This document shows, piece after piece, positions 10,910 to 36,676 of a stretch of 64,000 bases of DNA; positions within the stretch are counted from its first letter, which is position 1; every line of letters begins with the position of its first letter. The notes below the pieces were generated by a model that saw only the letters and a list, made by a program, of their open reading frames with translations, was not told the origin of the DNA and made no database searches. Position numbers and translations under genes: made by a program. Origin of the DNA: an uncultured delta proteobacterium (GTDB taxonomy: Bacteria; Myxococcota; Myxococcia; Myxococcales; Anaeromyxobacteraceae). The stretch is from positions 208,034 through 272,033 of the forward strand of contig CAWHDZ010000007.1 of assembly GCA_963828255.1 (NCBI GenBank), written 5' to 3'.

Positions 10910-11001
10910 GATACCCCCAGGGTGAATACCCCGGGAAGGTACCACGCCCGCCGCGCCATCCAAGAAGGACGACGGGGCGGGCCCGTCGGGTGTTCCGGGG
11001 G

Positions 11002-13011: not shown

Positions 13012-13177
13012 GGGCAGCCTCCTGGGAAAAACACGTGAAACTTGTGCGGGATCGGTCCTCGAACCGACAATCGCGTTTACCCCCAAAGGGCATTTTAGTC
13101 CAACCAGGAAGCGCTCATTGTCCGTCGCGCAACGGTGAGGCCCACCCGGGATTCCGGGTGGGTCTCGCGCCGAAGCG

Positions 13178-15768: not shown

Positions 15769-18700
15769 AGGGGCGGCGGCGTGCCCTGTGGCCAGCCGCC
15801 GCCCCCGGGGATCAGTGACCAGTGCCGTTGCAGCCGCAGTTGTCCTTGACCCAGCCCGTGGTGTTGTTGGCGGGGTAGGAGACGATGTAGAGCCTGCTGC
15901 CCGTGCCGCCCTGCGCGTAGGGTGCGGCGTTGTCCCAGCCGGCGATGGTGCCGCCGACGTTGGCGCTGGCGCCGGCGATGGCGACGAGGATGCCTGGGCG
16001 GGGTCCGCCGTGGGGGATGGCGGCGTGGCAGTTGAAGCAGGCCAGGCGGTGGTCGCCGCGCGAGACGTGGGTCGCGAAGCGTGAGCTCCCGAAGTTCTGG
16101 TTGTGGCAGTTGATGCAGAAGGTGTTGGCGGGCATGCCGGCGCTGGTTCCGACGAGGGTGTTGTTCCAGGCGGTGTTCGGTCCCTTGAGGATGAACTTCG
16201 CGGCCGAGCCGTGCGGGCCGTTGGGATCGGTGGTCGTGTCGGAGGCGTGGCAGTCGGTGCAGGTCATGAGGCTGGTTCGCGTCCAGGGGGCCTTGATGTT
16301 GCTGGTGGCGCCCAGGTTGCTCCCTGCGCTCGCGAGAACAGGGTGGAAGCTGCCGGCGGTCTCGTTGTTCGCCCACGTGCCGGCGAAACTCCCCACGTTG
16401 GCGGGGTTGAATTCCTTGGCCTGGTCGGTCTCGGCAAAGGCGCCGGAGGGTGACGTCGGAGGAGTTCCGGTGCCCCAGTAGTACCCGGTGTGGCACTTGA
16501 AGCAGAGGGTGGCCTGGAGGTCGGTGCCGGCGGCGATCACCTTCTTGGTGAAGTTGGCCGAGGTCGGGGCGGTGAAGAAGGCCGGGTTGGAGGTGAGCTG
16601 CGCTCCCCAGGCGCCCTGGAGCGCGGGTCCTGAGACGTTGCCGGTGGTCGCGCTGCCGGTGACGCGCAGGCTTCCGGACGTGGGCTTGGCCTCGTGGGAG
16701 TCGTGGCAGTCCATGCAGCTGGCGTGGCGCTGGCCGGCGCCTGCGGTGACGCCCAGCGCGTTGCCGAAGACGGCGTTGGTGAACTCGGCGGCCGAGTTGT
16801 GCCGGGTGTCGGAGTTGGAGGGGTGGCCCGACTGGTTGGCGGTGGTGGCGTGGAGGACCTGGGTCTGGATGTCCTTGCCGGAGCGGTTGCCCTGGGCGCC
16901 GGCGGCGGGAGTCGCCGTCGAGCCGTGGCAGTTGTAGCAGGCGAAGTTGGCCGCCGTTCCGGCCGGGTTGGTGGTGCCGGCGAGCAGGTTCACGTCGGTG
17001 GTGGAGTAGTGGACGGAGACGGTGGTCGTGCTCGCGGGCGTGTTGCCCTCGACGCGGCTGGCGTGGCACTTGGTGCAATTGCGGGCGAAGCTGCTGGCGT
17101 CGTGGAGCCCGTAGCTCCAGTTGTAGGTCGTCGCCCCCACGGTGTTGGTGGAGAAGTCGTGGGCCGAGAGGCCGAAGGTCGCGGCGGAGACGGTGATGCC
17201 GTTCGCCAGGATGGGCTTCTGGTGGCAGCTCGCGCACAGGCCCACGTTGAGCGTGGTGTCGAAATCGGTCCGGGCGCGGTTCTGGGTGCCGGTGCCGCCG
17301 GTGCCGATGCGCGTGGTCGCCGTGACGGCGCGGGTCGCCTGCGTTGTGGCGTCGAGGAAGACGTTGTTGGCGTGCCCCGCTCCGGCCGGGCTGGTGACGG
17401 TGTGCGGGTGGTCGCCGTGGCACATGGAGATGCAGGTCCGGTTGGCGATCGCCACCGAGGTGTTGAGATCGGTTCCGGTCCAGCTGAAGGCGCCGTCCGC
17501 CGGGACGTCGCTGCCGAGGGCGTGCCGTGAGACCGGCGCGCCGGTCACCGCCGTCATCCGGTTGAAGTAGTCGGTGTGGCAGCCGCCGCAGCTCGAGCCG
17601 CCGGTGGCGGGCTCGCCGCCGCCGTCGAGCTGGCCGTTGATGTGGAGGCCGCCGGCGACGTTGATGGTGCCGTCGGTGTTGACCGTGCCGCCGTGGCAGC
17701 GGTTGCAGTCGGTGGCGGCCGCGAGGACGCCGGTGTGGCTCACCGTGGGCGGGAAGGCGTGGCAGCTGCCGCAGGTCGCGGCGGTGCCGGTCCAGGACCA
17801 GGTGGCCCCCACCGAGCCGGTGAAGCCCGCCGCCATCGTGGCGCCGTGGCAGTAGGTGGCGCAGGTGGTGGCGGTGGTGCTGCCGTTGCCCAGCGTGAAC
17901 GTCGCAGTGAACGCGCCCAGGTTCGCGCCGGTGGCGGTGGCGAAGGTCACGTTCCGCGTGCTGTTCGAGTGGGCGTTGTTTCCGGCGTTGTTCGGGTGGC
18001 ACTCGACGCAGGCGACGGGCCGGTACACCGCGCCGGTGGCCACGGGGTTCACGTGGGAGACGTGGACTCCGACCCGGACGCCGGTCGTGGCTCCCAGCGA
18101 GTCGGCGGGGGGCGCCGACTGCTGGTTCAGGTCCGCGCCGGCCACGCTCACACGGGTCGCCGCGCCGTGGCAGGACGTGCAGGTGAGCGCGTCGACCTGA
18201 ACCGACCCGTTCAGGTGATTGGCCGGGTTGATGCTGCCGATGGTGTAACCGGTGTGGCAGTTCTGGCAGGCGGAGTTGGCTGGGTGGGTCCCGCCGGGGG
18301 GCGTGCCGTGGCAGGTGCCGCAGTTCGCTGCGGCGACGCCGCCGAGCCAGGACGGGGCGAGAGTGGTCGCGCCGTTCGTGAAGTTGCCGTGGCAGTAGAC
18401 GTTGGAGCAGGTGCCCGCGCCGTTCGTCCCCGCGCCGGTGGTGCTGCCCGCGTAGGCGGCGGTGGTGATGCCGCCCGTCCTGGCGAGCGTGCCGAAGGCG
18501 ATGGTGGCGCGAGCTCCGCCGGTGCCGACGCCCGTCGCGTGGGCGACGTCGCCCGCGCCGGGAACCGTGTGGCACTCGTTGCAGGCGAGCGCGGTGGCGC
18601 GCCAGCGCGTGCCAACGAGGTGCGCCGCGTGTGCGCCGACGCCGGCGGCCGTCGCAGCGGTCGCCCCGGTGGTGTCGGCGGCGGTGGCGTTGAAGCCGGG

Positions 18701-18870
18701 GGCCGAGGCGTTCGACGTTGCGGCGACCGCGGTCTGGGTGAGATCGCCGTGGCAGAGGGTGCAGCCGGAGCGGCTCAGGTTGACGGTGCCGTCCACGTGG
18801 GTCGCGGCGACCACCGTCGTCGCCGTGTTGCCCGCGCCGTGGCAGGTCGCGCAGGTGGCGTTGGCAGGGT
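15769..18870. repeat. copy 1 of a ~3.1-kb near-identical direct repeat (copy 2 at ~23458-26560)
   Basis: Offset 7689 bp; only a few substitutions visible over the first ~2.4 kb. Confidence 0.92.
15770..15805 (-). terminator. GC-rich stem-loop after giant cytochrome gene 1 (no U-tract)
   Basis: GGGGCGGCGGC-14 nt-GCCGCCGCCCC; identical copy at 23459-23494. Confidence 0.55.
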
Positions 18871-21800
18871 GGTGCGACGCCGCGTTCAGGGCCGGGGGCG
18901 CGCCGTGGCACGAGGTGCAGGCGAGCTTGCCCGAGGTTGCCCAGGAGAGCGCCGCAGCGCTCTGGTTGCCGCCGGGGAAGTTGCCGTGACAGTAGGTGTT
19001 CGAGCAGGTGTGGGCCGTGGGGTTGTAAGCCGTCGGCACCGCGCCCTGGGCTGTCGACAGGCCAGCGTAGGTCACGCCGATGACGCCGTTCGAGTGCGTA
19101 CTGGTGGTCGGGAGGACATGGCAGTTGACGCATGCCATCGGCCTCGACAGCGCAGGCGCCGTGGCGCCCTGGTTCACGTGCGCCAGGTGGACGCCGGCGA
19201 TCCCGGTGGCCGACGCGACGACCGGAGGCGCGGCCGCCTGGTTCAGGTCCGCACCGGCCACGCTTACCCGACCAGCCGCGCCGTGGCAGGAGGTGCAGGA
19301 CATGCCGTTGACGTCGACCGTGCCGTTGACGTGGGTGGCCGGATCGATGATCGACTGGGTGGCGTTGCTGTAGTTGCCGTGGCAGTTGCCGCAGGTGGCG
19401 AGCGTGGAGCCGGCCGGGTGGGTGCCGCCAGGAGGCGTGCCGTGGCAGGAGGTGCAGGTCGTCGCCGCGGCGGTCCAGGTGATGGCGCCGGCGCCGACAC
19501 CGTTCGTGAAGTTGCCGTGGCAGTAAGTGTTGGAGCAGGTGCTGCCGGCGTAGGAGGGGGCCGGGAAGGTGGTCCCGGTGCCGGTCCGCGCCAGCGTCCC
19601 GAAGACGACGTTGGGCGCGCCGTTGGCGTGGAGCGGGGTGGCCGGGATGGCGGCGTTGTGGCACTCGCTGCAGGCGACCTGCTTGGAGAAGCTTGGGCCG
19701 CCGGCGGCGCCGGTGAAGAGGTGCTTCGCGTGGGCGCCGACCTTGGCGCCCGTCGAGAGGTTGGTCGCATCGACCGGAGGAGAGGACGAGAAGGCGACGG
19801 CATTGGCGTCGGCGCCGGTGCGGGCCGGATCGCCGTGGCAGGTGGTGCAGGTCTGGGTGGTGTACTCGATGACGCCGTTCACGTGAGTCGCCACGTTGAC
19901 GGCGACGCCGGTGTAGCCCGTGTGGCAGGAGCCGCAATCGGTGCGGTTCGGGTGGAAGCGCCCGGTCGACGTCGTCGACGGCGGCATCCCGTGGCAGGAG
20001 GCGCAGACGAGCGTCGCGGCGGTGGTCCAGGCGGGCGTCACGTTGGTCGCGCCTATGCCGCCGCCGAGGTTGCCGTGGCAGTAGGTGTTGGAGCAGGTGA
20101 GGGCCGTGGTGGAGTAGCTGGCCGTGGCGATGCCGCCGGTCGTCGACAGGTTGGCGAGCCCAACCGTGCCGGTCGTCGCGACGCCGGTCTTGTGGACCTG
20201 GACCGTGGGGACGACGTGGCAGGCGTTGCAGAGGACCGGGCGGGACCGCGTCCCGAGGACGTGGGCCGCGTGGACGCCGACGCCGCGGCCGGTGATCGCG
20301 GTGAGGCCGTAGGTGTCGGGGGAGCCAACGCCCCTGGGTGCGGCGCCGACGTTCGGGTCCTGCGTGCCGGTGGCGACGAGCGTGCCGCCGTGGCAGGTGG
20401 TGCAGGTGAGCGTCGAGGTATTGACGGCGCCGTTCACGTGCAGGCCTCCGGCGACGTTGACCACTCCGGCCGCGTTGACGGTTCCGCCGTGGCAGCTCGC
20501 GCAGGTGGTGAGCGCGGCGGCGTTGTGGTGGTTCGCCGTCGTCGGGGGCGACTTGTGGCAGCTGCCGCAGTCGGCAGCCGCGCCGTTCCAGGACCAGGAG
20601 GCGACGCTGCCGCGGGTGGTCGTCGCGTTCAGGCTCGAGCCGTGGCAGTAGGTGGCGCACGTCGTCTGCGTCGTCGTCCCGTTGCCCTGGACGAAGGTGG
20701 GAGCGAACGCGCCCAGGTTCGCGCCGGTGGCGGTGGCGAACGTCACGTTGACGACGCTGTTCGAGTGGGCGGCGCTCAGGTTGTTGGGGTGGCACTCGGT
20801 ACAGGCCACCGGCTTGTAGACCGCGCCGGCTGCGGCAGGATTCACGTGGCCGAGGTGGGTTCCGACCGCGACGCCCGTCGTCGCGCCCGCCGTGTCGACC
20901 GGAGGCGCCGACGCCTGGTTCAGGTCTGCGCCGGCCACGCTCACGCGCGCAGCCGAGCCGTGGCACGAGGTGCAGGACATGTTCGAGATGTCGATGACGC
21001 CGTTCAGGTGGGCCGTTGTGTTGACCGTCGTCGCGGAGTAGCCGGTGTGGCAGGTCTGGCAGGCGGAGTTGGCCGGGTGGGTCCCGCCGGGAGGCGTGCC
21101 GTGGCAGGTGCCGCAGTTCGCTGCGGCGACGCCGCCGAGCCAGGAGGGAGCGAGCGTCGTCGCGCCGTTCTGGAAGTTGCCGTGGCAGTAGACGTTGGAG
21201 CAGGTGCCCGCGCCGTTCGTCCCGGCGCCGGTGGTGCTGCCCGCGTAGGCGGCGGTGGTGATGCCGCCGGTCCTGGCGAGCGTGCCGAAGGCGATGGTGG
21301 CGCGCGCTCCGCCGGTGCCGACGCCCGTCGCGTGGGCGACGTCGCCCGCGCCGGGCACGGTGTGACACTCGCTGCAGGCGAGGGGCGTGCTCCTCCAGCG
21401 CGTGCCAACGAGGTGCGCCGCGTGTGCGCCGACCGCGGCGGCCGTCGCAGCGGTGGCGCCGGTGGTGTCGGCGGCGGTGGCGTTGAAGCCGGGGGCCGAG
21501 GCGTTCGACGTTGCGGCGACCGCGGTCTGGGTGAGGTCGCCGTGGCAGAGGGTGCAGCCGGAGCGGCTCAGGTTGACGGTGCCGTCCACATGGGTGGCAG
21601 CGACCACGGTCGTCGCCGTGTTGCCGGCGCCGTGGCAGGTCGCGCAGGTGGCGTTGGCAGGGTGGTGGCTTGCGGCGGTGAGCGCGGGGGGTGCCCCGTG
21701 GCAGGCCGTGCAGGCGAGCTTGCCCGAGGTGGCCCAGGAGAGCGCCGCAGCGCTCTGGTTGCCGCCGGGGAAGTTGCCGTGACAGTAGGTGTTCGAGCAG

Positions 21801-23251
21801 GTGTGCGCCGTCGGGTTGTACGCCGTCGGCACCGCGCCCTGGGCTGTCGACAGGCCAGCGTAGGTCACGCCGATGACGCCGTTCGAGTGCGTGCTGCTCG
21901 TCGGAAGGACATGGCAGTTGACGCATGCCATCGGCCTCGACAGCGCAGGCGCCGTGGCGCCCTGGTTCACGTGCGCCAGGTGGACGCCGGCGATGCCGGT
22001 GGCCGACGCGACGACCGGAGGCGCGGCCGCCTGGTTCAGGTCCGCACCGGCCACGCTTACCCGACCAGCCGCGCCGTGGCAGGAGGTGCAGGACATGCCG
22101 TTGACGTCGACCGTGCCGTTGACGTGGAGTGAAGCATCGACCGAGGTGGAGGTGTAGCCGGTGTGGCAGGAGGCGCAGTCGGAGTTCTGGGTGTGGGGCG
22201 CGGCGGGCGGGACGCCGTGGCAGGTGCCGCAGGAGGTGGCGGCGGGATTGGTCCAGGTGGGGGCATAGCCCGCGTTGCCGCCGGAGAAGGAGCCGTGGCA
22301 GTAGACGTTGGAGCAGGTCGCGCCGTTCCAGGCGGGCGAGGCGCTTCCCGTCCCGGCGATGGTCCCGAAGGCGATCTCGGCCGGCCCGTTCGAGTGGGAG
22401 TTGCTCGTGGGGACGACGTGGCACTCGGTGCAGGAGAGCGAGTTGCCGTCCTTCAGGTGGAGGGCGTGGGCGCCGACTGCACGGGCGGTGGTGGCGGTCT
22501 CGCCCTTCGAGCCCCTGGGCGGCGCGGCGGACAAGCGAGGGTTCAGGGTGGTGTCGGCGCGGGCCGGATCGCCGTGGCAGGAGGAGCAGGAGAGGTTCGC
22601 GACGTCGACCTTGCCATCGATGTGGGTGGCGAGGTTGACGGTGGTCGCGGTGTAGCCGGTGTGGCAACTGCCGCAGTTCGAGGCCGAGCCCACGTCGGGG
22701 TGCGGAGCCGCGGGAGGAAGGCCGTGGCAGGTGCCGCAGGACGACGCGCGGGCCTGGGTCCAGACCGGGGCGTTGGTGGAGGAGCCGCCCACGAAGCCGC
22801 CGTGGCAGTAGGAGGCCGAGCAGGAGGAGCCGTTCCAGGTGGGAGCCGCGCCGCCGGTGGTGGCGAGCGGGCCGAAGGCGAGGTCGACCTTTCCGTTGGC
22901 GTGGGCGGTGGTGGTGGGGACGATGTGGCACTCGGAGCAAGCGACCGCCGGGCCGATTGTTCCGCCCTGGAGGTGGAGTTGGTGGGCGCCGACGGCGCGG
23001 TCGGTCGTGGCGGCTTCGCCCTTGGTGCCTTTGGGGGGTGCGGAGGGGAATTGGGGGTTGGTCACCGTTGCCTGACGCGTCCCGTCGCCGTGGCACAGGG
23101 TGCAAGCTTTGCTCTGGCCGGCGGCGCCGCCGTCCACTCCGTTCGACGCTGCCGGACGTGGGTCAGCACAACCTGAAAAAATGACGACGGAACATGCCAG
23201 GATCAGGGAGTAAGCAGATGAATGAGTGCTGCCTGCCCGCCGTCCCCGCAT
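15812..23251 (-). CDS. giant lipoprotein multiheme cytochrome c, ~2479 aa, ~60 heme motifs
   Basis: ATG at 23251 with GAGGA upstream; lipobox IFSGC; 10 five-heme modules plus a distinct 10-motif C-terminal domain; 49 CxxCH + 11 CX3-4CH (manual count). Confidence 0.93.
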   Translation of the reverse strand: MRGRRAGSTHSSAYSLILACSVVIFSGCADPRPAASNGVDGGAAGQSKACTLCHGDGTRQATVTNPQFPSAPPKGTKGEAATTDRAVGAHQLHLQGGTIGPAVACSECHIVPTTTAHANGKVDLAFGPLATTGGAAPTWNGSSCSASYCHGGFVGGSSTNAPVWTQARASSCGTCHGLPPAAPHPDVGSASNCGSCHTGYTATTVNLATHIDGKVDVANLSCSSCHGDPARADTTLNPRLSAAPPRGSKGETATTARAVGAHALHLKDGNSLSCTECHVVPTSNSHSNGPAEIAFGTIAGTGSASPAWNGATCSNVYCHGSFSGGNAGYAPTWTNPAATSCGTCHGVPPAAPHTQNSDCASCHTGYTSTSVDASLHVNGTVDVNGMSCTSCHGAAGRVSVAGADLNQAAAPPVVASATGIAGVHLAHVNQGATAPALSRPMACVNCHVLPTSSTHSNGVIGVTYAGLSTAQGAVPTAYNPTAHTCSNTYCHGNFPGGNQSAAALSWATSGKLACTACHGAPPALTAASHHPANATCATCHGAGNTATTVVAATHVDGTVNLSRSGCTLCHGDLTQTAVAATSNASAPGFNATAADTTGATAATAAAVGAHAAHLVGTRWRSTPLACSECHTVPGAGDVAHATGVGTGGARATIAFGTLARTGGITTAAYAGSTTGAGTNGAGTCSNVYCHGNFQNGATTLAPSWLGGVAAANCGTCHGTPPGGTHPANSACQTCHTGYSATTVNTTAHLNGVIDISNMSCTSCHGSAARVSVAGADLNQASAPPVDTAGATTGVAVGTHLGHVNPAAAGAVYKPVACTECHPNNLSAAHSNSVVNVTFATATGANLGAFAPTFVQGNGTTTQTTCATYCHGSSLNATTTRGSVASWSWNGAAADCGSCHKSPPTTANHHNAAALTTCASCHGGTVNAAGVVNVAGGLHVNGAVNTSTLTCTTCHGGTLVATGTQDPNVGAAPRGVGSPDTYGLTAITGRGVGVHAAHVLGTRSRPVLCNACHVVPTVQVHKTGVATTGTVGLANLSTTGGIATASYSTTALTCSNTYCHGNLGGGIGATNVTPAWTTAATLVCASCHGMPPSTTSTGRFHPNRTDCGSCHTGYTGVAVNVATHVNGVIEYTTQTCTTCHGDPARTGADANAVAFSSSPPVDATNLSTGAKVGAHAKHLFTGAAGGPSFSKQVACSECHNAAIPATPLHANGAPNVVFGTLARTGTGTTFPAPSYAGSTCSNTYCHGNFTNGVGAGAITWTAAATTCTSCHGTPPGGTHPAGSTLATCGNCHGNYSNATQSIIDPATHVNGTVDVNGMSCTSCHGAAGRVSVAGADLNQAAAPPVVASATGIAGVHLAHVNQGATAPALSRPMACVNCHVLPTTSTHSNGVIGVTYAGLSTAQGAVPTAYNPTAHTCSNTYCHGNFPGGNQSAAALSWATSGKLACTSCHGAPPALNAASHHPANATCATCHGAGNTATTVVAATHVDGTVNLSRSGCTLCHGDLTQTAVAATSNASAPGFNATAADTTGATAATAAGVGAHAAHLVGTRWRATALACNECHTVPGAGDVAHATGVGTGGARATIAFGTLARTGGITTAAYAGSTTGAGTNGAGTCSNVYCHGNFTNGATTLAPSWLGGVAAANCGTCHGTPPGGTHPANSACQNCHTGYTIGSINPANHLNGSVQVDALTCTSCHGAATRVSVAGADLNQQSAPPADSLGATTGVRVGVHVSHVNPVATGAVYRPVACVECHPNNAGNNAHSNSTRNVTFATATGANLGAFTATFTLGNGSTTATTCATYCHGATMAAGFTGSVGATWSWTGTAATCGSCHAFPPTVSHTGVLAAATDCNRCHGGTVNTDGTINVAGGLHINGQLDGGGEPATGGSSCGGCHTDYFNRMTAVTGAPVSRHALGSDVPADGAFSWTGTDLNTSVAIANRTCISMCHGDHPHTVTSPAGAGHANNVFLDATTQATRAVTATTRIGTGGTGTQNRARTDFDTTLNVGLCASCHQKPILANGITVSAATFGLSAHDFSTNTVGATTYNWSYGLHDASSFARNCTKCHASRVEGNTPASTTTVSVHYSTTDVNLLAGTTNPAGTAANFACYNCHGSTATPAAGAQGNRSGKDIQTQVLHATTANQSGHPSNSDTRHNSAAEFTNAVFGNALGVTAGAGQRHASCMDCHDSHEAKPTSGSLRVTGSATTGNVSGPALQGAWGAQLTSNPAFFTAPTSANFTKKVIAAGTDLQATLCFKCHTGYYWGTGTPPTSPSGAFAETDQAKEFNPANVGSFAGTWANNETAGSFHPVLASAGSNLGATSNIKAPWTRTSLMTCTDCHASDTTTDPNGPHGSAAKFILKGPNTAWNNTLVGTSAGMPANTFCINCHNQNFGSSRFATHVSRGDHRLACFNCHAAIPHGGPRPGILVAIAGASANVGGTIAGWDNAAPYAQGGTGSRLYIVSYPANNTTGWVKDNCGCNGTGH

Positions 23252-23322: not shown

Positions 23323-23363
23323 TGCACGGGACAGGCCAAGAGCTGACCCTGATGGGGTAAATG
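23323..23363 (-). promoter_or_regulatory. sigma54-like -24/-12 promoter plus adjacent pseudo-palindromic box
   Basis: Minus-strand TGGCCTGTCCCGTGCA (GG-N10-GC) at 23323-23338, identical to 36636-36651; box TGACCCTGATGGGGTAAATG at 23344-23363. Confidence 0.65.
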
Positions 23364-23457: not shown

Positions 23458-26400
23458 AGGGGCGGCGGCGTGCCCTGTGGCCAGCCGCCGCCCCCGGGGA
23501 TCAGTGACCAGTGCCGTTGCAGCCGCAGTTGTCCTTGACCCAGCCCGTGGTGTTGTTGGCGGGGTAGGAGACGATGTAGAGCCTGCTGCCCGTGCCGCCC
23601 TGCGCGTAGGGTGCGGCGTTGTCCCAGCCGGCGATGGTGCCGCCGACGTTGGCGCTGGCGCCGGCGATGGCGACGAGGATGCCTGGGCGGGGTCCGCCGT
23701 GGGGGATGGCGGCGTGGCAGTTGAAGCAGGCCAGGCGGTGGTCGCCGCGCGAGACGTGGGTCGCGAAGCGTGAGCTCCCGAAGTTCTGGTTGTGGCAGTT
23801 GATGCAGAAGGTGTTGGCGGGCATGCCGGCGCTGGTTCCGACGAGGGTGTTGTTCCAGGCGGTGTTCGGTCCCTTGAGGATGAACTTCGCGGCCGAGCCG
23901 TGCGGGCCGTTGGGATCGGTGGTCGTGTCGGAGGCGTGGCAGTCGGTGCAGGTCATGAGGCTGGTTCGCGTCCAGGGGGCCTTGATGTTGCTGGTGGCGC
24001 CCAGGTTGCTCCCTGCGCTCGCGAGAACAGGGTGGAAGCTGCCGGCGGTCTCGTTGTTCGCCCACGTGCCGGCGAAACTCCCCACGTTGGCGGGGTTGAA
24101 TTCCTTGGCCTGGTCGGTCTCGGCAAAGGCGCCGGAGGGTGACGTCGGAGGAGTTCCGGTGCCCCAGTAGTACCCGGTGTGGCACTTGAAGCAGAGGGTG
24201 GCCTGGAGGTCAGTGCCGGCGGCGATCACCTTCTTGGTGAAGTTGGCCGAGGTCGGGGCGGTGAAGAAGGCCGGGTTGGAGGTGAGCTGCGCCCCCCAGG
24301 CGCCCTGGAGCGCGGGTCCTGAGACGTTGCCGGTGGTCGCGCTGCCGGTGACGCGCAGGCTTCCGGACGTGGGCTTGGCCTCGTGGGAGTCGTGGCAGTC
24401 CATGCAGCTGGCGTGGCGCTGGCCGGCGCCTGCGGTGACGCCCAGCGCGTTGCCGAAGACGGCGTTGGTGAACTCGGCGGCCGAGTTGTGCCGGGTGTCG
24501 GAGTTGGAGGGGTGGCCCGACTGGTTGGCGGTGGTGGCGTGGAGGACCTGGGTCTGGATGTCCTTGCCGGAGCGGTTGCCCTGGGCGCCGGCGGCGGGAG
24601 TCGCCGTCGAGCCGTGGCAGTTGTAGCAGGCGAAGTTGGCCGCCGTTCCGGCCGGGTTGGTGGTGCCGGCGAGCAGGTTCACGTCGGTGGTGGAGTAGTG
24701 GACGGAGACGGTGGTCGTGCTCGCGGGCGTGTTGCCCTCGACGCGGCTGGCGTGGCACTTGGTGCAATTGCGGGCGAAGCTGCTGGCGTCGTGGAGCCCG
24801 TAGCTCCAGTTGTAGGTCGTCGCCCCCACGGTGTTGGTGGAGAAGTCGTGGGCCGAGAGGCCGAAGGTCGCGGCGGAGACGGTGATGCCGTTCGCCAGGA
24901 TGGGCTTCTGGTGGCAGCTCGCGCACAGGCCCACGTTGAGCGTGGTGTCGAAATCGGTCCGGGCGCGGTTCTGGGTGCCGGTGCCGCCGGTGCCGATGCG
25001 CGTGGTCGCCGTGACGGCGCGGGTCGCCTGCGTTGTGGCGTCGAGGAAGACGTTGTTGGCGTGCCCCGCTCCGGCCGGGCTGGTGACGGTGTGCGGGTGG
25101 TCGCCGTGGCACATGGAGATGCAGGTCCGGTTGGCGATCGCCACCGAGGTGTTGAGATCGGTTCCGGTCCAGCTGAAGGCGCCGTCCGCCGGGACGTCGC
25201 TGCCGAGGGCGTGCCGTGAGACCGGCGCGCCGGTCACCGCCGTCATCCGGTTGAAGTAGTCGGTGTGGCAGCCGCCGCAGCTCGAGCCGCCGGTGGCGGG
25301 CTCGCCGCCGCCGTCGAGCTGGCCGTTGATGTGGAGGCCGCCGGCGACGTTGATGGTGCCGTCGGTGTTGACCGTGCCGCCGTGGCAGCGGTTGCAGTCG
25401 GTGGCGGCCGCGAGGACGCCGGTGTGGCTCACCGTGGGCGGGAAGGCGTGGCAGCTGCCGCAGGTCGCGGCGGTGCCGGTCCAGGACCAGGTGGCCCCCA
25501 CCGAGCCGGTGAAGCCCGCCGCCATCGTGGCGCCGTGGCAGTAGGTGGCGCAGGTGGTGGCGGTGGTGCTGCCGTTGCCCAGCGTGAACGTCGCAGTGAA
25601 CGCGCCCAGGTTCGCGCCGGTGGCGGTGGCGAAGGTCACGTTCCGCGTGCTGTTCGAGTGGGCGTTGTTTCCGGCGTTGTTCGGGTGGCACTCGACGCAG
25701 GCGACGGGCCGGTACACCGCGCCGGTGGCCACGGGGTTCACGTGGGAGACGTGGACTCCGACCCGGACGCCGGTCGTGGCTCCCAGCGAGTCGGCGGGGG
25801 GCGCCGACTGCTGGTTCAGGTCCGCGCCGGCCACGCTCACACGGGTCGCCGCGCCGTGGCAGGACGTGCAGGTGAGCGCGTCGACCTGAACCGACCCGTT
25901 CAGGTGGTTGGCCGGGTTGATGCTGCCGATGGTGTAACCGGTGTGGCAGGCCTCGCAGGCTGGGTTGGCTGGGTGGGTCCCGCCGGGGGGCGTGCCGTGG
26001 CAGGTGCCGCAGTTCGCTGCGGCGACGCCGCCGAGCCAGGACGGGGCGAGAGTGGTCGCGCCGTTCGTGAAGTTGCCGTGGCAGTAGACGTTGGAGCAGG
26101 TGCCCGCGCCGTTCGTCCCCGCGCCGGTGGTGCTGCCCGCGTAGGCGGCGGTGGTGATGCCGCCCGTCCTGGCGAGCGTGCCGAAGGCGATGGTGGCGCG
26201 CGCTCCGCCGGTGCCGACGCCCGTCGCGTGGGCGACGTCGCCCGCGCCGGGAACCGTGTGGCACTCGTTGCAGGCGAGCGCGGTGGCGCGCCAGCGCGTG
26301 CCAACGAGGTGCGCCGCGTGTGCGCCGACGCCGGCGGCCGTCGCAGCGGTCGCCCCGGTGGTGTCGGCGGCGGTGGCGTTGAAGCCGGGGGCCGAGGCGT

Positions 26401-26560
26401 TCGACGTTGCGGCGACCGCGGTCTGGGCGAGGTCGCCGTGGCAGAGGGTGCAGCCGGAGCGGCTCAGGTTGACGGTGCCGTCCACGTGGGTCGCGGCGAC
26501 GACGGTGGTGGCCGTGTTGCCCGCGCCGTGGCAGGTCGCGCAGGTGGCGTTGGCAGGGTG
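23458..26560. repeat. copy 2 of the ~3.1-kb near-identical direct repeat
   Basis: Matches 15769-18870, including the stop codon and downstream hairpin. Confidence 0.92.
23459..23494 (-). terminator. GC-rich stem-loop after giant cytochrome gene 2
   Basis: Identical to 15770-15805. Confidence 0.55.
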
Positions 26561-29500
26561 GTGGCTCGCGGCGGTGAGCGCAGGCGGCGCGCCGTGGCAG
26601 GAGGTGCAGGAGAGCGTCGCGACCGTCTTCCAGGTGGGCGTGGCGATGGCGCCGGCGCCGCCGGCGAAGTTGCCGTGACAGTAGGTGTTGGAGCAGGTCC
26701 CACCCGCGCCGGCGTAGGTCGAGGTGACGCCGCCGGTGTTGGAGAGGTTGGCGAGCGTGACCGTTCCGGCCGTCGCGACGCCCGTCTTGTGGACCTGGAC
26801 CGTCGGGACGACGTGGCAGGCGTTGCAGAGGACCGGGCGGGACCGCGTCCCGAGGACGTGCGACGCGTGCACGCCGACGCCGTTCGCAGTGGCGGGGGCC
26901 GTGAGGCCGTAGGTGTCGGGGGAACCAACGCCCCTGGGGGCCGCGCCGACGTTCGGGTCCTGCGTGCCGGTGGCGACGAGCGTGCCGCCGTGGCAGGTGA
27001 CGCAGGTGAGGGTGGAGGTGTTGACGACGCCATTCACGTGCAGTCCGCCGGCGACGTTGACGACTCCGGCCGCGTTGACGGTTCCGCCGTGGCAACTCGC
27101 GCAGGTGGTGATCGCGGCGGCGTTGTGGTGGTTCGCAGTCGTGGGAGGCGACTTGTGGCAGCTGCCGCAATCGGCGGCGGCGCCGTTCCAGGTCCAACTC
27201 GTCACGCTGCCCCGCGTCGTCGTCGCGTTGAGCGAGGAGCCGTGGCAGTAAGTCGCGCACGTCGTCTGCGTCGTCGTCCCGTTCCCCTGGACGAAGGTGG
27301 GAGCGAACGCGCCCAGGTTGGCGCCGGTGGCGGTGGCGAATGTCACGTTCACGACGTTGTTGGAGTGGGCGTTGCTCGTGTTGTTCGGGTGGCACTCGGT
27401 ACAGGCCACCGGCTTGTAGACCGCGCCCGCCGCTGCCGGGTTCACGTGGCCGAGGTGCGTGCCGACCGCGACGCCCGTCGCGGCGCCCGCCGTGTCGACC
27501 GGAGGTGCCGCCACCTGGTTCACGTCGGCGCCGGCGACGCTGACGCGACCGCTGGTGCCGTGGCACGAGGTGCAGGACATGTTGGAGAGGTCGACAGCGC
27601 CATCGACGTGACCCGCCGCGCTGATGATGGACTGGGTGGCATTGCTGTAGTTGCCGTGGCAGTTGCCGCAGGTGGCGAGCGTGGAGCCGGCCGGGTGGGT
27701 GCCGCCCGGAGGCGTGCCGTGGCAGGAGGTGCAGGTCGTCGCCGCGGCGGTCCAGGTGATGGCGCCGGCGCCGACACCGTTCGTGAAGTTGCCGTGGCAG
27801 TAAGTGTTGGAGCAGGTGCTGCCGGCGTAGGAGGGGGCCGGGAAGGTGGTCCCGGTGCCGGTCCGCGCCAGCGTCCCGAAGACGACGTTGGGCGCGCCGT
27901 TGGCGTGGAGCGGGGTGGCCGGGATGGCGGCGTTGTGGCACTCGCTGCAGGCGACCTGCTTGGAGAAGCTTGGGCCGCCGGCGGCGCCGGTGAAGAGGTG
28001 CTTCGCGTGGGCGCCGACCTTGGCGCCCGTCGAGAGGTTGGTCGCATCGACCGGAGGAGAGGACGAGAAGGCGACGGCATTGGCGTCGGCGCCGGTGCGG
28101 GCCGGATCGCCGTGGCAGGTGGTGCAGGTCTGGGTGGTGTATTCGATGACGCCGTTCACGTGAGTCGCCACGTTGACGGCGACACCGGTGTAGCCCGTGT
28201 GGCAGGAGCCGCAATCGGTGCGGTTCGGGTGGAAGCGCCCGGTCGACGTCGTCGACGGCGGCATCCCGTGGCAGGAGGCGCAGACGAGCGTGGCGGCCGC
28301 GGTCCAGGCCGGGGTCACGTTGGTCGCGCCTACGCCGCCGCCGAGGTTGCCGTGGCAGTAGGTGTTGGAGCAGGTGAGGGTGGTGGTGGAGTAGCTGGCC
28401 GTGGTGATGCCACCGGTCGTCGACAGGTTGGCGAGCCCAACCGTGCCGGTCGTCGCGACGCCGGTCTTGTGGACCTGGGCGGTGGGAACGACGTGGCAGG
28501 CGTTGCAGAGCACCGGACGGGAGCGGGTGCCGAGGACGTGCGAGGCGTGCACGCCGACGCCGCGGGCGGTGGTGATGACGGTGCCATAGGTGTCGGGGGA
28601 GCCTGCGCCCCTGGGTGCGGCGCCGACGTTCGGGTCCTGCGTGCCGGTGGCGACGAGCGTGCCGCCGTGGCAGGTGGTGCAGGTGAGCGTCGAGGTATTG
28701 ACGGCGCCGTTCACGTGCAGGCCTCCGGCGACGTTGACGACTCCGGCCGCGTTGACGGTTCCGCCGTGGCAGCTCGCGCAGGTGGTGAGCGCCGCGGCGT
28801 TGTGGTGGTTGGCGGTGGTCGGAGGCGACTTGTGGCAGCTGCCGCAGTCGGCAGCCGCGCCGTTCCAGGTCCAGGAGGTCACGCTACCCCGCGTCGTCGT
28901 CGCGTTCAGCGAGGAGCCGTGGCAGTAGGTGGCGCAGGTGGTCTGGGTGGTGGTGCCGTTGCCCTGGACGAGGGTGGGAGCGAACGCGCCCAGGTTCGCG
29001 CCGGTGGCGGTGGCGAACGTCACGTTGACGACGCTGTTCGAGTGGGCGCTGCTCGTGTTGTTCGGATGGCACTCGGTACAGGTCACCGGCTTGTAGACCG
29101 CGCCCGCCGCTGCCGGGTTCACGTGGCCGAGGTGGGTTCCGACCGCGACGCCTGTCGATGCGCCCGCCGTGTCGATCGGGGGAGCGGCGGCCTGGTTCAG
29201 GTCCGCGCCGGCCACGCTCGCGCGAGCGGCGGTGCCGTGGCAGGAGGTGCAGGTGAGGTTGTCGACGTCGATGACGCCGTTCAGGTGGTTGGCGCCGACG
29301 GTCGTCGCCGTGTAGCCGGTGTGGCAGTTCGCGCAGGTAGCGCCGGCCGGGTGGGTCCCGCCGGGGGGCGTGCCGTGGCAGGTGCCGCAGTTCGCCGCGG
29401 CGACGCCGCCGAGCCAGGACGGGGCGAGAGTGGTCGCGCCGTTCGTGAAGTTGCCGTGGCAGTAGACGTTGGAGCAGGTGCCCGCGCCGTTCGTCCCCGC

Positions 29501-32500
29501 GCCGGTGGTGCTGCCCGCGTAGGCGGCGGTGGTGATGCCGCCCGTCCTGGCGAGCGTTCCGAAGGCCACGACGGCGCGAGCACCGCCGGTGCCGACGCCC
29601 GTCGCGTGGGCGACGTCGCCCGCGCCGGGAACCGTATGGCACTCGTTGCAGGCGAGCGGCGTGGAGCGCCAGCGCGTGCCGTTCAGGTGGGCCGCGTGTG
29701 CGCCGACCGCGGCGGCCGTCGCAGCGGTTGCGCCGGTGGTGTCGGCGGCGGTGGCGTTGAAGCCGGGCGCCGAGGCGCTCGACGTCGCGGCGACCGCGGT
29801 CTGGGCGAGATCGCCGTGGCAGAGGGTGCAGCCGGTCCGGCTCAGGTTGACGGTGCCGTCCACATGGGTGGCAGCGACCACGGTCGTCGCCGTGTTGCCC
29901 GCGCCGTGGCAGGTCGCGCAGGTGGCGTTGGCAGGGTGGTGGCTTGCGGCGGTGAGCGCAGGGGGCGCGCCGTGGCAAGAGGTGCAGGAGAGCGTGGCGG
30001 CCGCGGTCCAGGCCGGGGTCACGTTGGTCGCGCCTACGCCGCCGCCGAGGTTGCCGTGGCAGTAGGTGTTGGAGCAGGTGAGGGTGGTGGTGGAGTAGCT
30101 GGCCGTGGTGATGCCACCGGTCGTCGACAGGTTGGCGAGCCCAACCGTGCCGGTCGTCGCGACGCCGGTCTTGTGGACCTGGGCGGTGGGAACGACGTGG
30201 CAGGCGTTGCAGAGCACCGGACGGGAGCGGGTGCCGAGGACGTGCGAGGCGTGCACGCCGACGCCGCGGGCGGTGGTGAGGACGGTGCCATAGGTGTCGG
30301 GGGAGCCTGCGCCCCTGGGTGCGGCGCCGACGTTCGGGTCCTGCGTGCCGGTGGCGACGAGCGTGCCGCCGTGGCAGGTGGTGCAGGTGAGCGTCGAGGT
30401 ATTGACGGCGCCGTTCACGTGCAGGCCTCCGGCGACGTTGACGACTCCGGCCGCGGTGACCGTGCCACCGTGGCAGCTCGCGCAGGTGGTGAGCGCGGCG
30501 GCGTTGTGGTGGTTCGCCGTCGTCGGGAGGCGACTTGTGGCAGCTGCCGCAGTCGGCGGCGACCGCGCTGTTCCAGGACCAGGAGGCGACGCTGCCGCGG
30601 GTGGTCGTCGCGTTGAGCGAGGAGCCGTGGCAGTAGGTGGCGCAGGTGGTCTGGGTGGTGGTGCCGTTGCCCTGGACGAGGGTGGCCGTGAAGGCCCCCA
30701 GGTTCGCGCCGGTGGCGGTGGCGAACGTCACGTTGACGACGCTGTTCGAGTGGGCGCTGCTCGTGTTGTTCGGATGGCACTCGGAGCAGGCGACCGGCTT
30801 GTAGACGGCGCCGGCGGCGGCAGGGTTCACGTGGCCGAGGTGGGTTCCGACGGCGACGCCTGTCGATGCGCCCGCCGTGTCGATCGGGGGAGCGGCGGCC
30901 TGGTTCAGGTCCGCGCCGGCCACGCTCGCGCGAGCGGCGGTGCCGTGGCAGGAGGTGCAGGTCAGGTTGTCGACGTCGATGACGCCGTTCAGGTGGGCCG
31001 CGGTGTTGACGGTCGTCGCCGTGTAGCCGGTGTGGCAGTTCGCGCAGGTAGCGCCGGCCGGGTGGGTGCCGCCGGGGGGCGTGCCGTGGCAGGTGCCGCA
31101 GTTCGCGGCGGCGACGCCGCCGAGCCAGGACGGGGCGAGCGTGGTCGCGCCGTTCCGGAAGTTGCCGTGGCAGTAGACGTTGGAGCAGGTGCCCGCGCCG
31201 TTCGTCCCGGCGCCGGTGGTGCTGCCCGCGTAGGCGGCGGTGGTGATGCCGCCGGTCCTGGCGAGCGTTCCGAAGGCCACGACGGATGCGAGCACCGCCG
31301 GTGCCGACGCCCGTCGCGTGGGCGACGTCGCCCGCGCCGGGAACCGTGTGGCACTCGTTGCAGGCGAGCGGCGTGGAGCGCCAGCGCGTGCCGACGAGGT
31401 GGGCCGCGTGAGCGCCGACCGCGGCGGCCGTCGCAGCGGTCGCGCCGGTGGTGTCGGCGGCGGTGGCGTTGAACCCAGGAGCCGAGGCGTTCGAGGTCGC
31501 GGCGACGGCGGTCTGGGCGAGGTCGCCGTGGCAGAGCGTGCAGCCGGAGCGGCTCAGGTTCACCGTGCCGTCCACGTGGGTCGCAGCGACCACGGTGGTG
31601 GCGGTGTTGCCGGCGCCGTGGCAGGTGGCGCAGGTGGCGTTGGCAGGGTGGTGGCTTGCGGCGGTGAGCGCGGGAGGCGCCCCGTGGCAGGCGGTGCAGG
31701 AGAGCGTGGCGACCGTCTTCCAGGTGGGCGTGGCGATGGCGCCGGCGCCGCCGGCGAAGTTGCCATGGCAATAGGTGTTCGAGCAGGTCCCGCCCGCACC
31801 CGCGTAGGTCGAGGTGACGCCGCCGGTGTTGGAGAGGTTGGCGAGCGCGACCGCTCCGGCCGTCGCGACGCCCGTCTTGTGGACCTGGACCGTGGGAACG
31901 ACGTGGCAGGCGTTGCAGAGCACCGGACGGGAGCGGGTGCCGAGGACGTGCGCCGCGTGGACGCCGACGCCGTTCGCAGTGGCCGGCGCGGTGAGGCCGT
32001 AGGTGTCGGGGGAGCCAACGCCCCTGGGGGCGGCGCCGACGTTCGGGTCCTGGGCTCCGGTGGCGACGAGCGCGCCTCCGTGGCAGGTGGTGCAGGTGAG
32101 GGTCGAGGTATTGACGGCGCCGTTCACGTGCAGGCCGCCGGCGACGTTGACGACTCCGGCCGCGTTGACGGTTCCGCCGTGGCAGCTCGCGCAGGTGGTG
32201 ATCGCGGCGGCGTTGTGGTGGTTCGCCGTCGTCGGAGGCGACTTGTGGCAGCTGCCGCAGTCGGCGGCGACCGCGCTGTTCCAGGACCAGGAGGCGACGC
32301 TGCCGCGGGTGGTCGTCGCGTTCAGCGAGGAGCCGTGGCAGTAGGTGGCGCAGGTGGTCTGGGTGGTGGTGCCGTTGCCCTGGACGAGGGTGGCCGTGAA
32401 GGCCCCCAGGTTCGCGCCGGTGGCGGTGGCGAACGTCACGTTGACGACGTTGTTCGAGTGGGCGTTGCTCGTGTTGTTCGGATGGCACTCGGAGCAGGCG

Positions 32501-35500
32501 ACCGGCTTGTAGACGGCGCCGGCGGCGGCCGGGTTCACGTGGCCGAGGTGGGTTCCGACGGCGACGCCTGTCGATGCGCCAGCGGTGTCGATCGGGGGAG
32601 CGGCGGCCTGGTTCAGGTCGGCACCGGCCACGCTCGCGCGAGCGGCGGTGCCGTGGCAGGAGGTGCAGGTGAGGTTGTCGACGTCGATGACGCCGTTCAG
32701 GTGGGCCGCGGTGTTGACCGTCGTCGCCGTGTAGCCGGTGTGGCAGTTCGCGCAGGTAGCGCCGGCCGGGTGGGTGCCGCCGGGGGGCGTGCCGTGGCAG
32801 GTGCCGCAGTTCGCGGCGGCGACGCCGCCGAGCCAGGACGGGGCGAGCGTGGTCGCGCCGTTCCGGAAGTTGCCGTGGCAGTAGACGTTGGAGCAGGTGC
32901 CGGCGCCGTTGTCCCGGCGCCGGTGGTGCTGCCCGCGTAGGCGGCGGTGGTGATGCCGCCGGTCCGGGCGAGCGTGCCGAAGGCGATGATGGCGCGCGCA
33001 CCGCCGGTGCCGACGCCCGTCGCGTGGGCGACGTCGCCCGCGCCGGGAACCGTGTGGCACTCGTTGCAGGCGAGCGGCGTGGAGCGCCAGCGCGTGCCGT
33101 CAGGTGGGCCGCGTGTGCGCCGACCGCGGCGGCCGTCGCAGCGGTTGCGCCGGTGGTGTCGGCGGCGGTGGCGTTGAAGCCGGGCGCCGAGGCGTTCGAC
33201 GTCGCGGCGACGGCGGTCTGGGCGAGATCGCCGTGGCAGAGGGTGCAGCCGGAGCGGCTCAGGTTGACGGTGCCGTCCACATGGGTCGCGGCGACCACGG
33301 TCGTCGCCGTGTTGCCCGCGCCGTGGCAGGTCGCGCAGGTGGCGTTGGCTGGGTGGTGCGACGCCGCGTTCAGGGCAGGGGGCGCGCCGTGGCAAGAGGT
33401 GCAGGAGAGCGTGGCGGCCGCGGTCCAGGCCGGGGTCACGTTGGTCGCGCCTACGCCGCCGCCGAGGTTGCCGTGGCAGTAGGTGTTGGAGCAGGTGAGG
33501 GTGGTGGTGGAGTAGCTGGCCGTGGTGATGCCACCGGTCGTCGACAGGTTGGCGAGCCCAACCGTGCCGGTCGTCGCGACGCCGGTCTTGTGGACCTGGG
33601 CGGTGGGAACGACGTGGCAGGCGTTGCAGAGCACCGGACGGGAGCGGGTGCCGAGGACGTGAGCCGCGTGGACGCCGACGCCGCGGGCGGTGGTGAGGAC
33701 GGTGCCGTAGGTGTCGGGGGAGCCTGCGCCCCTGGGCGCGGCGCCGACGTTCGGGTCCTGCGTGCCGGTGGCGACGAGCGTGCCGCCGTGGCAGGTGACG
33801 CAGGTGAGCGTCGAGGTATCGACGGCGCCGTTCACGTGCAGGCCGCCGGCGACGTTGACCACTCCGGCCGCGTTGACGGTTCCGCCGTGGCAGCTCGCGC
33901 AGGTGGTGAGCGCGGCGGCGTTGTGGTGGTTGGCGGTGGTCGGAGGCGACTTGTGGCAACTGCCGCAGTCGGCGGCGACCAGGCTGTTCCAGGACCAGGA
34001 GGCGACGCTGCCGCGGGTGGTCGTCGCGTTCAGCGAGGAGCCGTGGCAGTAGGTGGCGCAGGTGGTCTGGGTGGTGGTGCCGTTGCCCTGGACGAGGGTG
34101 GCCGTGAAGGCCCCCAGGTTCGCGCCGGTGGCCGTGGCGAAGGTGACGTTCACCGTGCTGTTCGAGTGGCTGATGTTGCCGGCGTTGTTGGTGTGGCACT
34201 CGGTGCAGGCGACCGGCTTGTAGACGGCGCCGGCGGCAGCAGGGTTCACGTGGCCGAGGTGGGTTCCGACGGCGACGCCCGTCGAGGCGCCCGCCGTGTC
34301 GATCGGGGGGGCGGCGGCCTGGTTCAGGTCTGCGCCGGCCACGCTCACGCGGCCGGTGGCGCCGTGGCACGACGTGCAGGTCATGTTGGCGACGTCGATA
34401 ACCCCATTGATGTGGGTGGTCAGGTTGACCGTCGTCGCGGTGTAACCCGTGTGGCAACTCGCGCAGGCGGCGTTGGCCGGGTGCGTCCCGCCGGGGGGCG
34501 TGCCGTGGCAGGTGCCGCAGGCGTTCGCGGCCGGCGCCGTCCAGCTCGGGACGTAGGTGGTCGCGCCGTTCCGGAAGTTGCCGTGGCAGTAGCTCGAGGC
34601 GCAGCCCGAGCCGTTCCAGGCTGGGCTCACGTTGCCCGTCTTCGCGAGCGCGCCGAACACCACCTCGGCCACCCCGTTCGAGTGGGCGTTGCTCAGGACG
34701 ACGGAATGGCACTCGCCGCAGGCCGTGCCGGAGGAGGTCGCGCTGGCCTGGAGGTGGCGCAGGTGAGCGCCGACTCCGCGGGCGGTGGTGGCCGTGTTGC
34801 CCTTGGCGTCCACCGGGGGCGCGGCGGCCAGCTGGGGGTTCAGCGTGCTGCCGGCGCGGGCCGCGTCGCCGTGGCAGGAGGTGCAGGAGAGGTTGACCTC
34901 GACCAGGCCGTTCACGTGGGTGGCCGGATCGACCGCCGTGCGCGTGGAGCCAGGGTGGCAGCTGCCGCAGCTGGCCGTGGCGGCGACGAACGGGTGGGGC
35001 GCCGGAGGCGGGCTGCCGTGGCAGCTTCCGCAGGTCACTTCCACGCTCCCGCCGGTCCAGAGCGGGCGGTTGTGGGTGGCTCCACCGAGGGTGGCGCCAT
35101 GGCAATAGTTGGTGCAGGTGAGGCCGGTCGGGTCGAAGGCGGGGGCGGCGCCGCCGGTCGAGGCGAGAGGGCCCCAGGCGAGGTCGAGGGCGCCGCTGGG
35201 GTGCGTGCCCTGGCCAGGAGTGGCGTGGCATTCGGTGCAGGCCATGGCGATGCGCAGCGAGCCCGCGTTCAGGTGGGCCTGGTGGGCGCCGACGCCGGCG
35301 GAGGTGGTGGCGCTGCTGCCCGTGGTGTCCTTGGGCGGCGCGGCGGCGAGATCGGGATTGAGCGCGGTGGCGACCCGGGTCGCGTCGCCGTGGCAGGAGG
35401 AGCAGGAAATCGCGGCGACGTCCACGCTGCCGTTCACGTGGGTCGACGCGTTGACGGAGGTCGAGGTGTAGCCGGTGTGGCACGAGGCGCAGTCGGAGCT

Positions 35501-36565
35501 CTGGGTGTGGGGCGCGGAGGGCGGGACGCCGTGGCAGGTGCCGCAGCTCGAGGCGGCCGGGTTGGTCCAGGTCGGCGTGTAGCCGGCGTTGCCGCCGGGG
35601 AAGGCGCCGTGGCAGTAGACGTTGGAGCAGGTCGCGCCGCTCCAGGACGGCGTGGCTCCGCCGGTCCCGGCGACGGTCCCGAACGCGATCTCGACCGACC
35701 CGTTCGAGTGGGTGTTGCTGGTGGGGACGGCGTGGCACTCGGTGCAGGCGGTGGCGTTGCCGTCCTTGAGGTGGAGGGCGTGCGCGCCCACCGCGCGGGT
35801 GGTCGTGGCGGACTCGCCCTTCGAGCCCGTGGGCGGCGCGGCGGAGTTGCGGGGGTTGAGCGTCGTGTCGGCGCGGGCCGGATCGCCGTGGCAGGAGGTG
35901 CAGGTCATGTTCGCGACGTCCACCTTGCCGTCCACGTGGGTGGCGAGGTTCACCGTGGTCGCGGTGTAGCCGGTGTGGCAGGTTCCGCAGTTGGAGGCCA
36001 CGCCCACGTCCGGGTGGGGAGCGGCGGGAGGCAGGCCATGGCAGGTGCCGCAGGAGGTTGCGCGGGCCTGGGTCCAGACGGGCGCATTGGTCGAGGAGCC
36101 CCCGGCGAAGCCGCCGTGGCAGTAGGACGCCGAGCAGGAGGAGCCGTTCCAGGCGGGGACCGCTCCGCCGGTGGTTGCGAGCGTTCCGAAAGCGAGGTCC
36201 ACCATTCCGTTGGCGTGGGCAGCGGTCGTGGGGACGGTGTGGCACTCGGCGCAAGCGACCGCCGGGCCGATCGTTCCGCCCTGGAGGTGGAGCTGGTGGG
36301 CCCCCACGGCGCGGGCAGTCACGTCACTTTCGCCTCTGGTTCCTTTGGGGGGAGCCGACGGGAGCATCGGGTTCGTGGAGGTCGCCACGCGGGTCGCGTC
36401 ACCGTGGCAAAGGGTGCAAGCTTTGCTTCCGCCGCCGGCCCCTCCGTCCGTCCCCTTCGAGGCCATTGGGCGTGGGTCGGAGCAACCTGAAACGAAGGCT
36501 ACGCAAACCCCTAGAATCAGGGCGCTAACGAAGCCATGGGTGCCACTTGACCGCAATCCCGACAT
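23501..36565 (-). CDS. giant lipoprotein multiheme cytochrome c, ~4354 aa reconstructed across four 1-bp indels, ~110 heme motifs
   Basis: ATG at 36565, lipobox FVSGC. Coding passes through ORFs 30989..36640, 32697..36254, 30415..33060, 28884..31295 and 23501..30418. Indels against sister repeat copies lie at ~33100 (-1), ~32910 (-1), ~31287 (+1) and ~30526 (+1). Span is 13065 nt = 4355 codons. 89 CxxCH + 21 CX3-4CH (manual count). Confidence 0.85.
25390..34390 (-). repeat. tandem ~1.7-kb three-module (15-heme) super-repeats inside the largest cytochrome
   Basis: Module A starts recur near 34378, 32667, 30958, 29250, 27573 and 25869; order ABC-ABC-ABC-AB'D-ABC-A'. Confidence 0.85.
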
Positions 36566-36635: not shown

Positions 36636-36676
36636 TGCACGGGACAGGCCAGCGTTTGACTCCGATGGACTAAATG
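36636..36676 (-). promoter_or_regulatory. sigma54-like -24/-12 promoter plus adjacent box
   Basis: Same 16-mer as 23323-23338; box TGACTCCGATGGACTAAATG at 36657-36676 with the same 5-nt spacing. Confidence 0.65.

Follow-up and report, generated by a model that had tools for sequence, protein, structure and literature searches.

The window analysed here is a 64,000-nucleotide stretch of DNA from an uncultured delta proteobacterium of the Anaeromyxobacteraceae, and its minus strand carries a gene (gene A, 23501..36565) for a predicted lipoprotein cytochrome of 4354 amino acids with 110 heme motifs. We found that gene A is a real, very large member of a named, structurally unsolved family. The reading that we favour, with somewhat better than even confidence, is that it encodes one intact lipoprotein, anchored in the outer membrane, whose modules would be joined head to tail in a continuous heme chain leading electrons to a distal head. 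This reading draws its support from the grammar of the modules, five conserved histidines, junctions that lack linkers, a repeat number shared with an orthologue, purifying selection, neighbouring System II genes and a promoter-like 16-mer.

Gene A was delimited from the list of open reading frames (ORFs), an alignment of its repeat units and a Pfam/TIGRFAM match, and it extends 13,065 bp from an ATG at 36565 to a stop at 23501. An earlier sequence-only reading had joined five overlapping ORF fragments into this one gene and expected automated annotation to break it up. Both points hold: the ORF list contains the gene as five overlapping pieces that can be joined across four 1-bp indels, and every heme motif in the 23.5–36.6 kb interval is on the minus strand, in a frame that changes four times. 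Alignment of five consecutive 1.7-kb sister repeat units located exactly four non-triplet indels (−1 near 33101, −1 near 32910, +1 near 31287 and +1 near 30527), each recognisable against the sister copies, and all fall within 30527..33101 (minus strand), in units with a mutual identity of 92–95%. Translated with an X placed at each of the four breaks, the 4354-residue frame contains no internal stop. That the indels sum to zero had been offered as evidence of a single frame, but it carries no weight, as this is expected by chance in one case out of three.

The anatomy proposed earlier proved exact on recount. The 110 heme motifs comprise 89 CxxCH, 8 CX3CH and 13 CX4CH; 21 of the 110 (19%) are thus non-canonical, and counting CxxCH only misses about one-fifth of the hemes, as had been said. 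A signal peptide (36482..36565, minus strand) ends in a VSGC lipobox, with Cys28 followed by Ser at +2, which makes the product a likely lipoprotein. Next come 20 five-heme modules of about 165–195 residues each (25301..36427, minus strand), which, by their identities, are ordered 1 2 3 4 (a b c)x3 a b′ d a b c a′. Every module has the motif spacing 2-2-(3/4)-2-2, and the series ends in a head with 10 motifs. The product would weigh about 424 kDa as apoprotein and 492 kDa with hemes.

The module belongs to TIGR01904 (130.5 bits against a cut-off of 27), and PF09698 matches two large pieces of gene A at 62.5 and 85.3 bits (cut-off 21.7). The grammar of this family, a CX4CH followed by CxxCH, occurs 20 times in gene A, 13 times with CX4CH and seven with CX3CH. 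Among 98 aligned three-module stretches, the first module has invariant positions for its five heme motifs and for five histidines outside the motifs; there is one spare histidine per heme, and bis-His ligation is therefore likely. Heme 5 of one module and heme 1 of the following one are 28–33 residues apart at 19 of 19 junctions in gene A, and the median spacing over 1959 modules (duplicates included) is 32. Junctions this short leave no linker between the modules. These histidines and the junction length make the continuous heme chain of the sequence-only reading likely; its novelty was overstated, as single-chain wires have already been predicted in print.

Structure prediction and coevolution bear on how modules meet. 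AlphaFold2 on three modules gave a predicted local distance difference test score (pLDDT) of 84.4 and a predicted template modelling score (pTM) of 0.62, with scant secondary structure. Across 1110 module pairs, couplings within modules were strong (z up to 20) and those between modules weak. The two best inter-module couplings (z 4.5 and 4.3) link the end of one module with positions 24–28 of the module after it, and these two with four more of the top 25 connect positions 140–171 of one module with 24–29 of the next (z 3.2–4.5). Three points weigh against the proposed chain here: an implausible, unrelated pair of positions reaches z 4.1; the shuffle control, which tops at 2.5, is lenient; and the predicted model of the head, with a pLDDT of 46.6, is unusable. 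Searching PDB sequences with a repeat stretch gave no match, a profile search of PDB with the module gave only generic multiheme matches, and ESM Atlas returned only generic multiheme clusters (recognition 1783, below the 2300 mark). Foldseek and VIA-align found no fold match, a weak negative since the query was a 511-residue heme-free model. The TIGR01904/PF09698 module is widespread, yet no solved structure was matched by sequence or fold.

We consider it quite probable that the four indels are consensus errors and that the gene is intact. G001, a genome of another species of the same genus, carries a collinear copy of 13,042 bp that is 82.5% identical over 12,988 columns, with a largest internal gap of 15 bp and 109 motifs in the order of gene A. 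This orthologue keeps the frame at all four indel sites and has up to 12 other non-triplet gaps elsewhere. Between the two copies, the part of the gene ahead of the first break has a ratio of nonsynonymous to synonymous substitution rates (dN/dS) of 0.27, and the part between breaks one of 0.26; the repeats that follow have 0.33 and the head 0.25. Changes at Cys or His number 4 of 126 ahead of the first break and 0 of 322 after it. Frame switches in related genes, counted in regions picked around ORFs already seen there, amount to 47 in about 51 kb of five assemblies with 8–40 contigs, against none in about 60 kb of six assemblies with 190–510 contigs; we take assemblies with few contigs to be built from long reads. 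Programmed frameshifting was considered and rejected, as it would need four serial shifts of both signs, and the G001 orthologue has none at these sites. Unbroken ORFs of comparable size (4096 and 4309 residues) also occur among relatives, which favours an intact gene A.

Contigs from eight of 22 listed public runs were aligned over the indel sites. The extra base at 31286–31288 is missing from all covering depth in six runs; at 32910–32913 a base is added in six runs, and by the majority of depth in four; at 30521–30528 one base is left out in five runs, a minority of depth in three. Three of the four sites are thus represented at the in-frame length in these contigs. Several observations tell against intactness. 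No contig from these runs covers the site at 33101, and the contigs are 90–99% alike, so that other strains or sister repeats may be their source. The three protein matches of 4096–5000 residues do not include an unbroken copy of gene A, and several fragments in other assemblies run out of frame at other places. Seven PF09698 genes contain 10 frameshifts in 38.3 kb, denser than in ordinary genes of the source assembly (11 frameshifts in 217 genes, 238 kb), and the probability of at least four frameshifts in 13 kb is 0.003 at the ordinary-gene rate and 0.10 at an upper-bound rate. For ordinary genes, a cruder count on DNA gave 50 frameshifts in 187 kb with both genomes pooled. The excess in PF09698 genes fits poor polishing of repeats, and also decay. 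Metagenomes of the Joint Genome Institute (JGI) yielded no contig of the same species (best match 68%), and RNA runs X19 and X20 gave only short pieces, mostly 90–98% alike.

The last of these possibilities, decay, would make gene A a recent pseudogene in the source strain, its place taken by gene B, a shorter intact paralogue that shares its head and promoter. Gene B could make gene A dispensable, which also counts against our reading. Besides the excess of frameshifts, such a replacement would agree with the lack of gene B, resB and ccsA between genes A and C in G001 and G006, and dN/dS against another species is blind to very recent decay. However, 4354 codons have acquired neither a nonsense codon nor a lost motif, all four indels fall in the most similar repeats, and the site at 30527 reads as if two sister-copy alleles had been merged. 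Other assemblies with few contigs are broken at different places, and every contig covering 31286–31288, in six of the eight runs, is without the extra base. We regard a pseudogene as rather improbable.

The repeat number is real. The G001 orthologue, which is independent, matches gene A in all 20 modules and the head, and its collinearity and equal motif order refute repeat inflation. An expansion during assembly, of the repeats or of the A–B tandem, might be suspected from a genome contamination of 6.6% and from tails of genes A and B that differ at just two of about 2,450 bases. Against this, the repeat units of gene A differ from one another by 5–27%, A–B divergence is graded upstream of the tail, and gene-B-like proteins occur in other assemblies; an assembly artefact is very improbable indeed.

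Gene B (15812..23251, minus strand) is intact and encodes 2479 residues with 60 motifs, arranged as 10 modules in the order 1 2 e c a b′ d e c a′ followed by the same head. The module identities in the two genes point to growth by tandem duplication and by exchange between paralogues. Their tails share 3.24 kb at 98.6% identity (15769–19009 and 23458–26698), with both differences named above in the last 2.45 kb or so and divergence rising gradually upstream. Orthologous heads in G001 and G006 are only 82% identical, unlike the A–B pair. The tail identity suggests recent gene conversion or duplication. The block missing between genes A and C in G001 and G006 spans 10 kb (13178–23416) and comprises gene B, resB, ccsA and the gene for a 172-residue lipoprotein.

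The head itself, 599 residues with 10 hemes (23504..25300, minus strand), is identical in A and B. Sequences 52–58% identical to it end seven listed relatives with other N-terminal parts (P0090, P0104, P0113, P0116, P0117, P0120 and P0121), and some head-bearing large cytochromes carry FN3/Ig domains. From such comparisons, the head appears to be a mobile terminal domain; a search of PDB sequences with it found no match.

The two genes also share a putative promoter. The same −24/−12-like 16-mer stands before gene A (36636..36651, minus strand) and gene B (23323..23338, minus strand), and with its GG-N10-GC spacing it is invariant at −86 to −88 in seven of seven gene starts (A, B and five relatives); the strict pattern has a genome-wide frequency of 0.023 per 300 nt. 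We take GG-N10-GC to be the sigma-54 consensus, and the promoter is a prediction only. An Rfam search of window positions 1–40000 gave no match, which argues against a riboswitch there.

Relatives were sought among proteins of up to 5000 residues, and 123 were listed: all three of 4096–5000 residues and the best 120 of 178 others. Among those listed, at least 100 motifs occur in four, at least 80 in 19 and at least 60 in 42. Gene A is not the largest of the family, since P0001 (intact, 4096 residues) has 116 motifs and P0002 (MBI4817592.1; intact, 4309 residues), the largest listed, has 101+5+20 = 126. The closest named relatives listed are from the Anaeromyxobacteraceae, and the module also occurs among those listed in other Myxococcota, Ignavibacteria, Zixibacteria, Calditrichota and Nitrospirae. 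ORFs with 61 motifs are found in the cultured Anaeromyxobacter terrae and A. soli, and the family provides a natural length series of 10, 16, 20 and 25 modules. Five listed proteins (P0042, P0068, P0077, P0088 and P0092) represent a variant family that is rich in CX3CH and CX4CH motifs and has Pfam PF21936, without the five-heme pattern; P0042 has 62+21+19 = 102 motifs.

The concept of a single-chain wire and this size class are already known. Gene A matches, far above cut-off, the hidden Markov model of the family of Geobacter sulfurreducens OmcG, OmcH and OmcA (GSU2884), and in partial supplement sequences, viewed by eye and unaligned, OmcG and OmcH show a repeated motif grammar like that of gene A. 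These three proteins are predicted to be long single-chain wires, a 27-heme chain is modelled as a 350-Å wire with Fe–Fe distances under 15 Å (PMC11492766), and OmcG and OmcH are among the cytochromes needed for optimal growth on Fe(III) or electrodes (PMC2825233). PMC12977616 describes such cytochromes as evolving fast. Compared with the modelled wire, gene A has about four times the hemes; it differs from the Geobacter wires in its Myxococcota host, its distinct 10-heme head, its near-identical 1.7-kb super-repeats and its tandem paralogue with an identical head.

Of similar size are the archaeal giants, namely the highly expressed 113-heme protein of Methanoperedens manganireducens (PMC7082337, in part) and MHC-A/B/C of the anaerobic methanotrophic archaea (ANME), with up to 86 motifs (PMC9012536, in part). 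They too are single polypeptides proposed to act in extracellular electron transfer. They carry S-layer or pectin-lyase domains, whereas gene A encodes a bacterial lipoprotein of one repeated module; Pfam found neither domain in two large gene A pieces (3494 of 4354 residues), the remainder being repeat modules. Within public sets of multiheme cytochromes, the 110 motifs of gene A exceed the survey maximum of 87 in Desulfuromonadia, where non-canonical motifs were counted (PMC11492766, in part), but lie below the intact 116 and 126 and below the record of 113 given there. The passages of PMC7082337 do not state how 113 was counted, and it may not be comparable with 110. Given the named family, the printed wires and the 113-heme protein, the earlier view of gene A as a novel giant wire went too far.

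Other systems resemble gene A less closely. A wire-like chain of cytochrome c7 modules, GSU1996, has been characterised experimentally (PMC11492766, in part) and resembles gene A in making a single-chain wire by concatenation. Its triheme module differs from the five-heme module here, and TIGR04257 scores 22.6 on gene A against a cut-off of 40. The module profile matches PDB 3ouq, presumably part of GSU1996, only at E 0.015. The gene A product likely shares with OmcS, OmcE and OmcZ the task of moving electrons over long distances along closely spaced hemes. Those three are polymers of small subunits that reach micrometres, whereas the 4354-residue product would have a length fixed by its gene; none of their chains is among the sequence matches of gene A, and no fold match to them was found (a weak negative, from the 511-residue heme-free model). 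We found no report of a bacterial cytochrome with more than 100 hemes in the literature searched, from which subscription journals were largely absent. The same search gave no account of modules being shuffled between tandem paralogues that have identical heads, of a conserved sigma-54-type promoter or of a length series in Myxococcota. What is added here are the bacterial extreme in motif number, the length series, the shared head and the promoter-like 16-mer.

Based on these results, we propose a model for how gene A could act. Its transcription would be sigma-54-dependent, and its product would be exported by Sec, lipidated at Cys28 and loaded with heme by ResB/CcsA. Ser at +2 directs a lipoprotein to the outer membrane by the E. 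coli rule, and the product may be sorted there and displayed on the surface. With all repeat hemes probably bis-His, it would carry electrons and not catalyse reactions. Electrons would hop along the chain from anchor to head, and from there to minerals, humics or partner cells. The length of the wire would be set by module number and changed by tandem duplication and paralogue exchange. At the 7.8–8.5 Å per heme of OmcS and OmcE, or at 13 Å (350 Å over 27 hemes; PMC11492766, in part), the chain would span about 86–143 nm, far beyond a periplasm 17 nm wide (same source). A membrane-anchored wire of gene-encoded length, as first proposed, is likely; the tens of nanometres suggested for it should probably be raised to this range.

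Alternatively, the intact protein might mainly store electrons, as a flexibly jointed coil that lies either in the periplasm or at the surface. A capacitor role was proposed for a 40-heme cytochrome of Anaeromyxobacter dehalogenans 2CP-C (PMC2330069, in part), a very large protein from the family of gene A's closest named relatives that has, by its description, about one-third of the hemes, and a capacitor is one of two options in PMC11492766. The three-module pTM of just 0.62, the demands of exporting a 490-kDa holoprotein and some 278 motifs in seven genes of the cluster would suit a store. No porin gene was recognised among the cluster ORFs, to which no barrel predictor was applied, and this weighs against a surface wire. 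On the other hand, a store has no need of a fixed membrane anchor on one side or of a distinct, conserved head on the other, the junctions keep to a narrow range of lengths, and many small cytochromes could store electrons without a 13-kb gene. We think that storage as the main role is unlikely, though worth keeping in view, and prefer the anchored wire.

Gene A heads a cluster on the same strand, in the order A, B, resB, ccsA, small lipoprotein, C, D, E, F and a diheme peroxidase-family gene (all minus strand). The System II cytochrome c maturation genes are a ResB/CcsB-like gene (14518..15729; PF05140, 28.2 bits, cut-off 24.6) and a CcsA/ResC heme-attachment gene (13696..14508; PF01578, with TIGR03144 below cut-off). 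A probable lipoprotein of 172 residues without a known family (13178..13696) precedes four genes of the same module family: C (11002..13086, 18 motifs), D (9053..10930, 14), E (5830..8866, 27; one frameshift near 7880, intact in G006) and F (452..5701, 1749 residues, 47; intact). At 1..199 begins a lipoprotein gene of the diheme cytochrome c peroxidase/MauG family that continues past the window start. This gene (L191:7036-8232) also ends the cluster in G001, G004, G006, G011 and G013, and its product has Tyr at the position held by Met in classical peroxidases, which we take to be MauG-like.

Elsewhere, the genome encodes two secretins and, at G000 C27:166001-188940 (L189, L190), a second PF09698 giant with 52 motifs and five frame switches. 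Its neighbours are a 42-heme paired-CxxCH protein, an NHL propeller, a PPIase, two six-heme proteins, CsgG-like lipoproteins and a possible beta-barrel, a neighbourhood that presumably resembles nanowire companion clusters. A six-heme protein there had no match in PDB, and we therefore do not call it OmcS. Upstream of the gene A cluster, positions 38282–44464 hold an integrase remnant, a Replic_Relax gene and two DUF1254/DUF1214 genes, with GC down to 57.5% at 42–44 kb, and probably constitute a mobile element; a gene with 117-bp tandem repeats (53694–54933) possibly encodes a beta-propeller. Two 12-heme ORFs of equal size (854 codons; G000 C2:14280-16844 and C3:7645-10209) are in line with the 6.6% contamination.

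More broadly, we tentatively suggest, with less than even confidence, that Myxococcota and other sediment bacteria build anchored single-chain wires of about 100 nm, whose reach depends on how many modules they have and is retuned when tandem paralogues with homogenised heads recombine. In the same proposal, no bacterial polypeptide outside this family is known to carry as many heme motifs (116 and 126 in intact ORFs, with 110 here), and the family has been undercounted, because long-read assemblies fragment its genes, short-read assemblies truncate them and CxxCH-only counts miss one-fifth of the hemes. The case of gene A shows that surveys undercount the largest cytochromes. If the product is a wire, it would represent a second design for long-range electron transfer, with a fixed length, one chain, one anchor and one head in place of open-ended polymers, and a length series built from one repeated module would allow a direct test of how heme conduction depends on distance.

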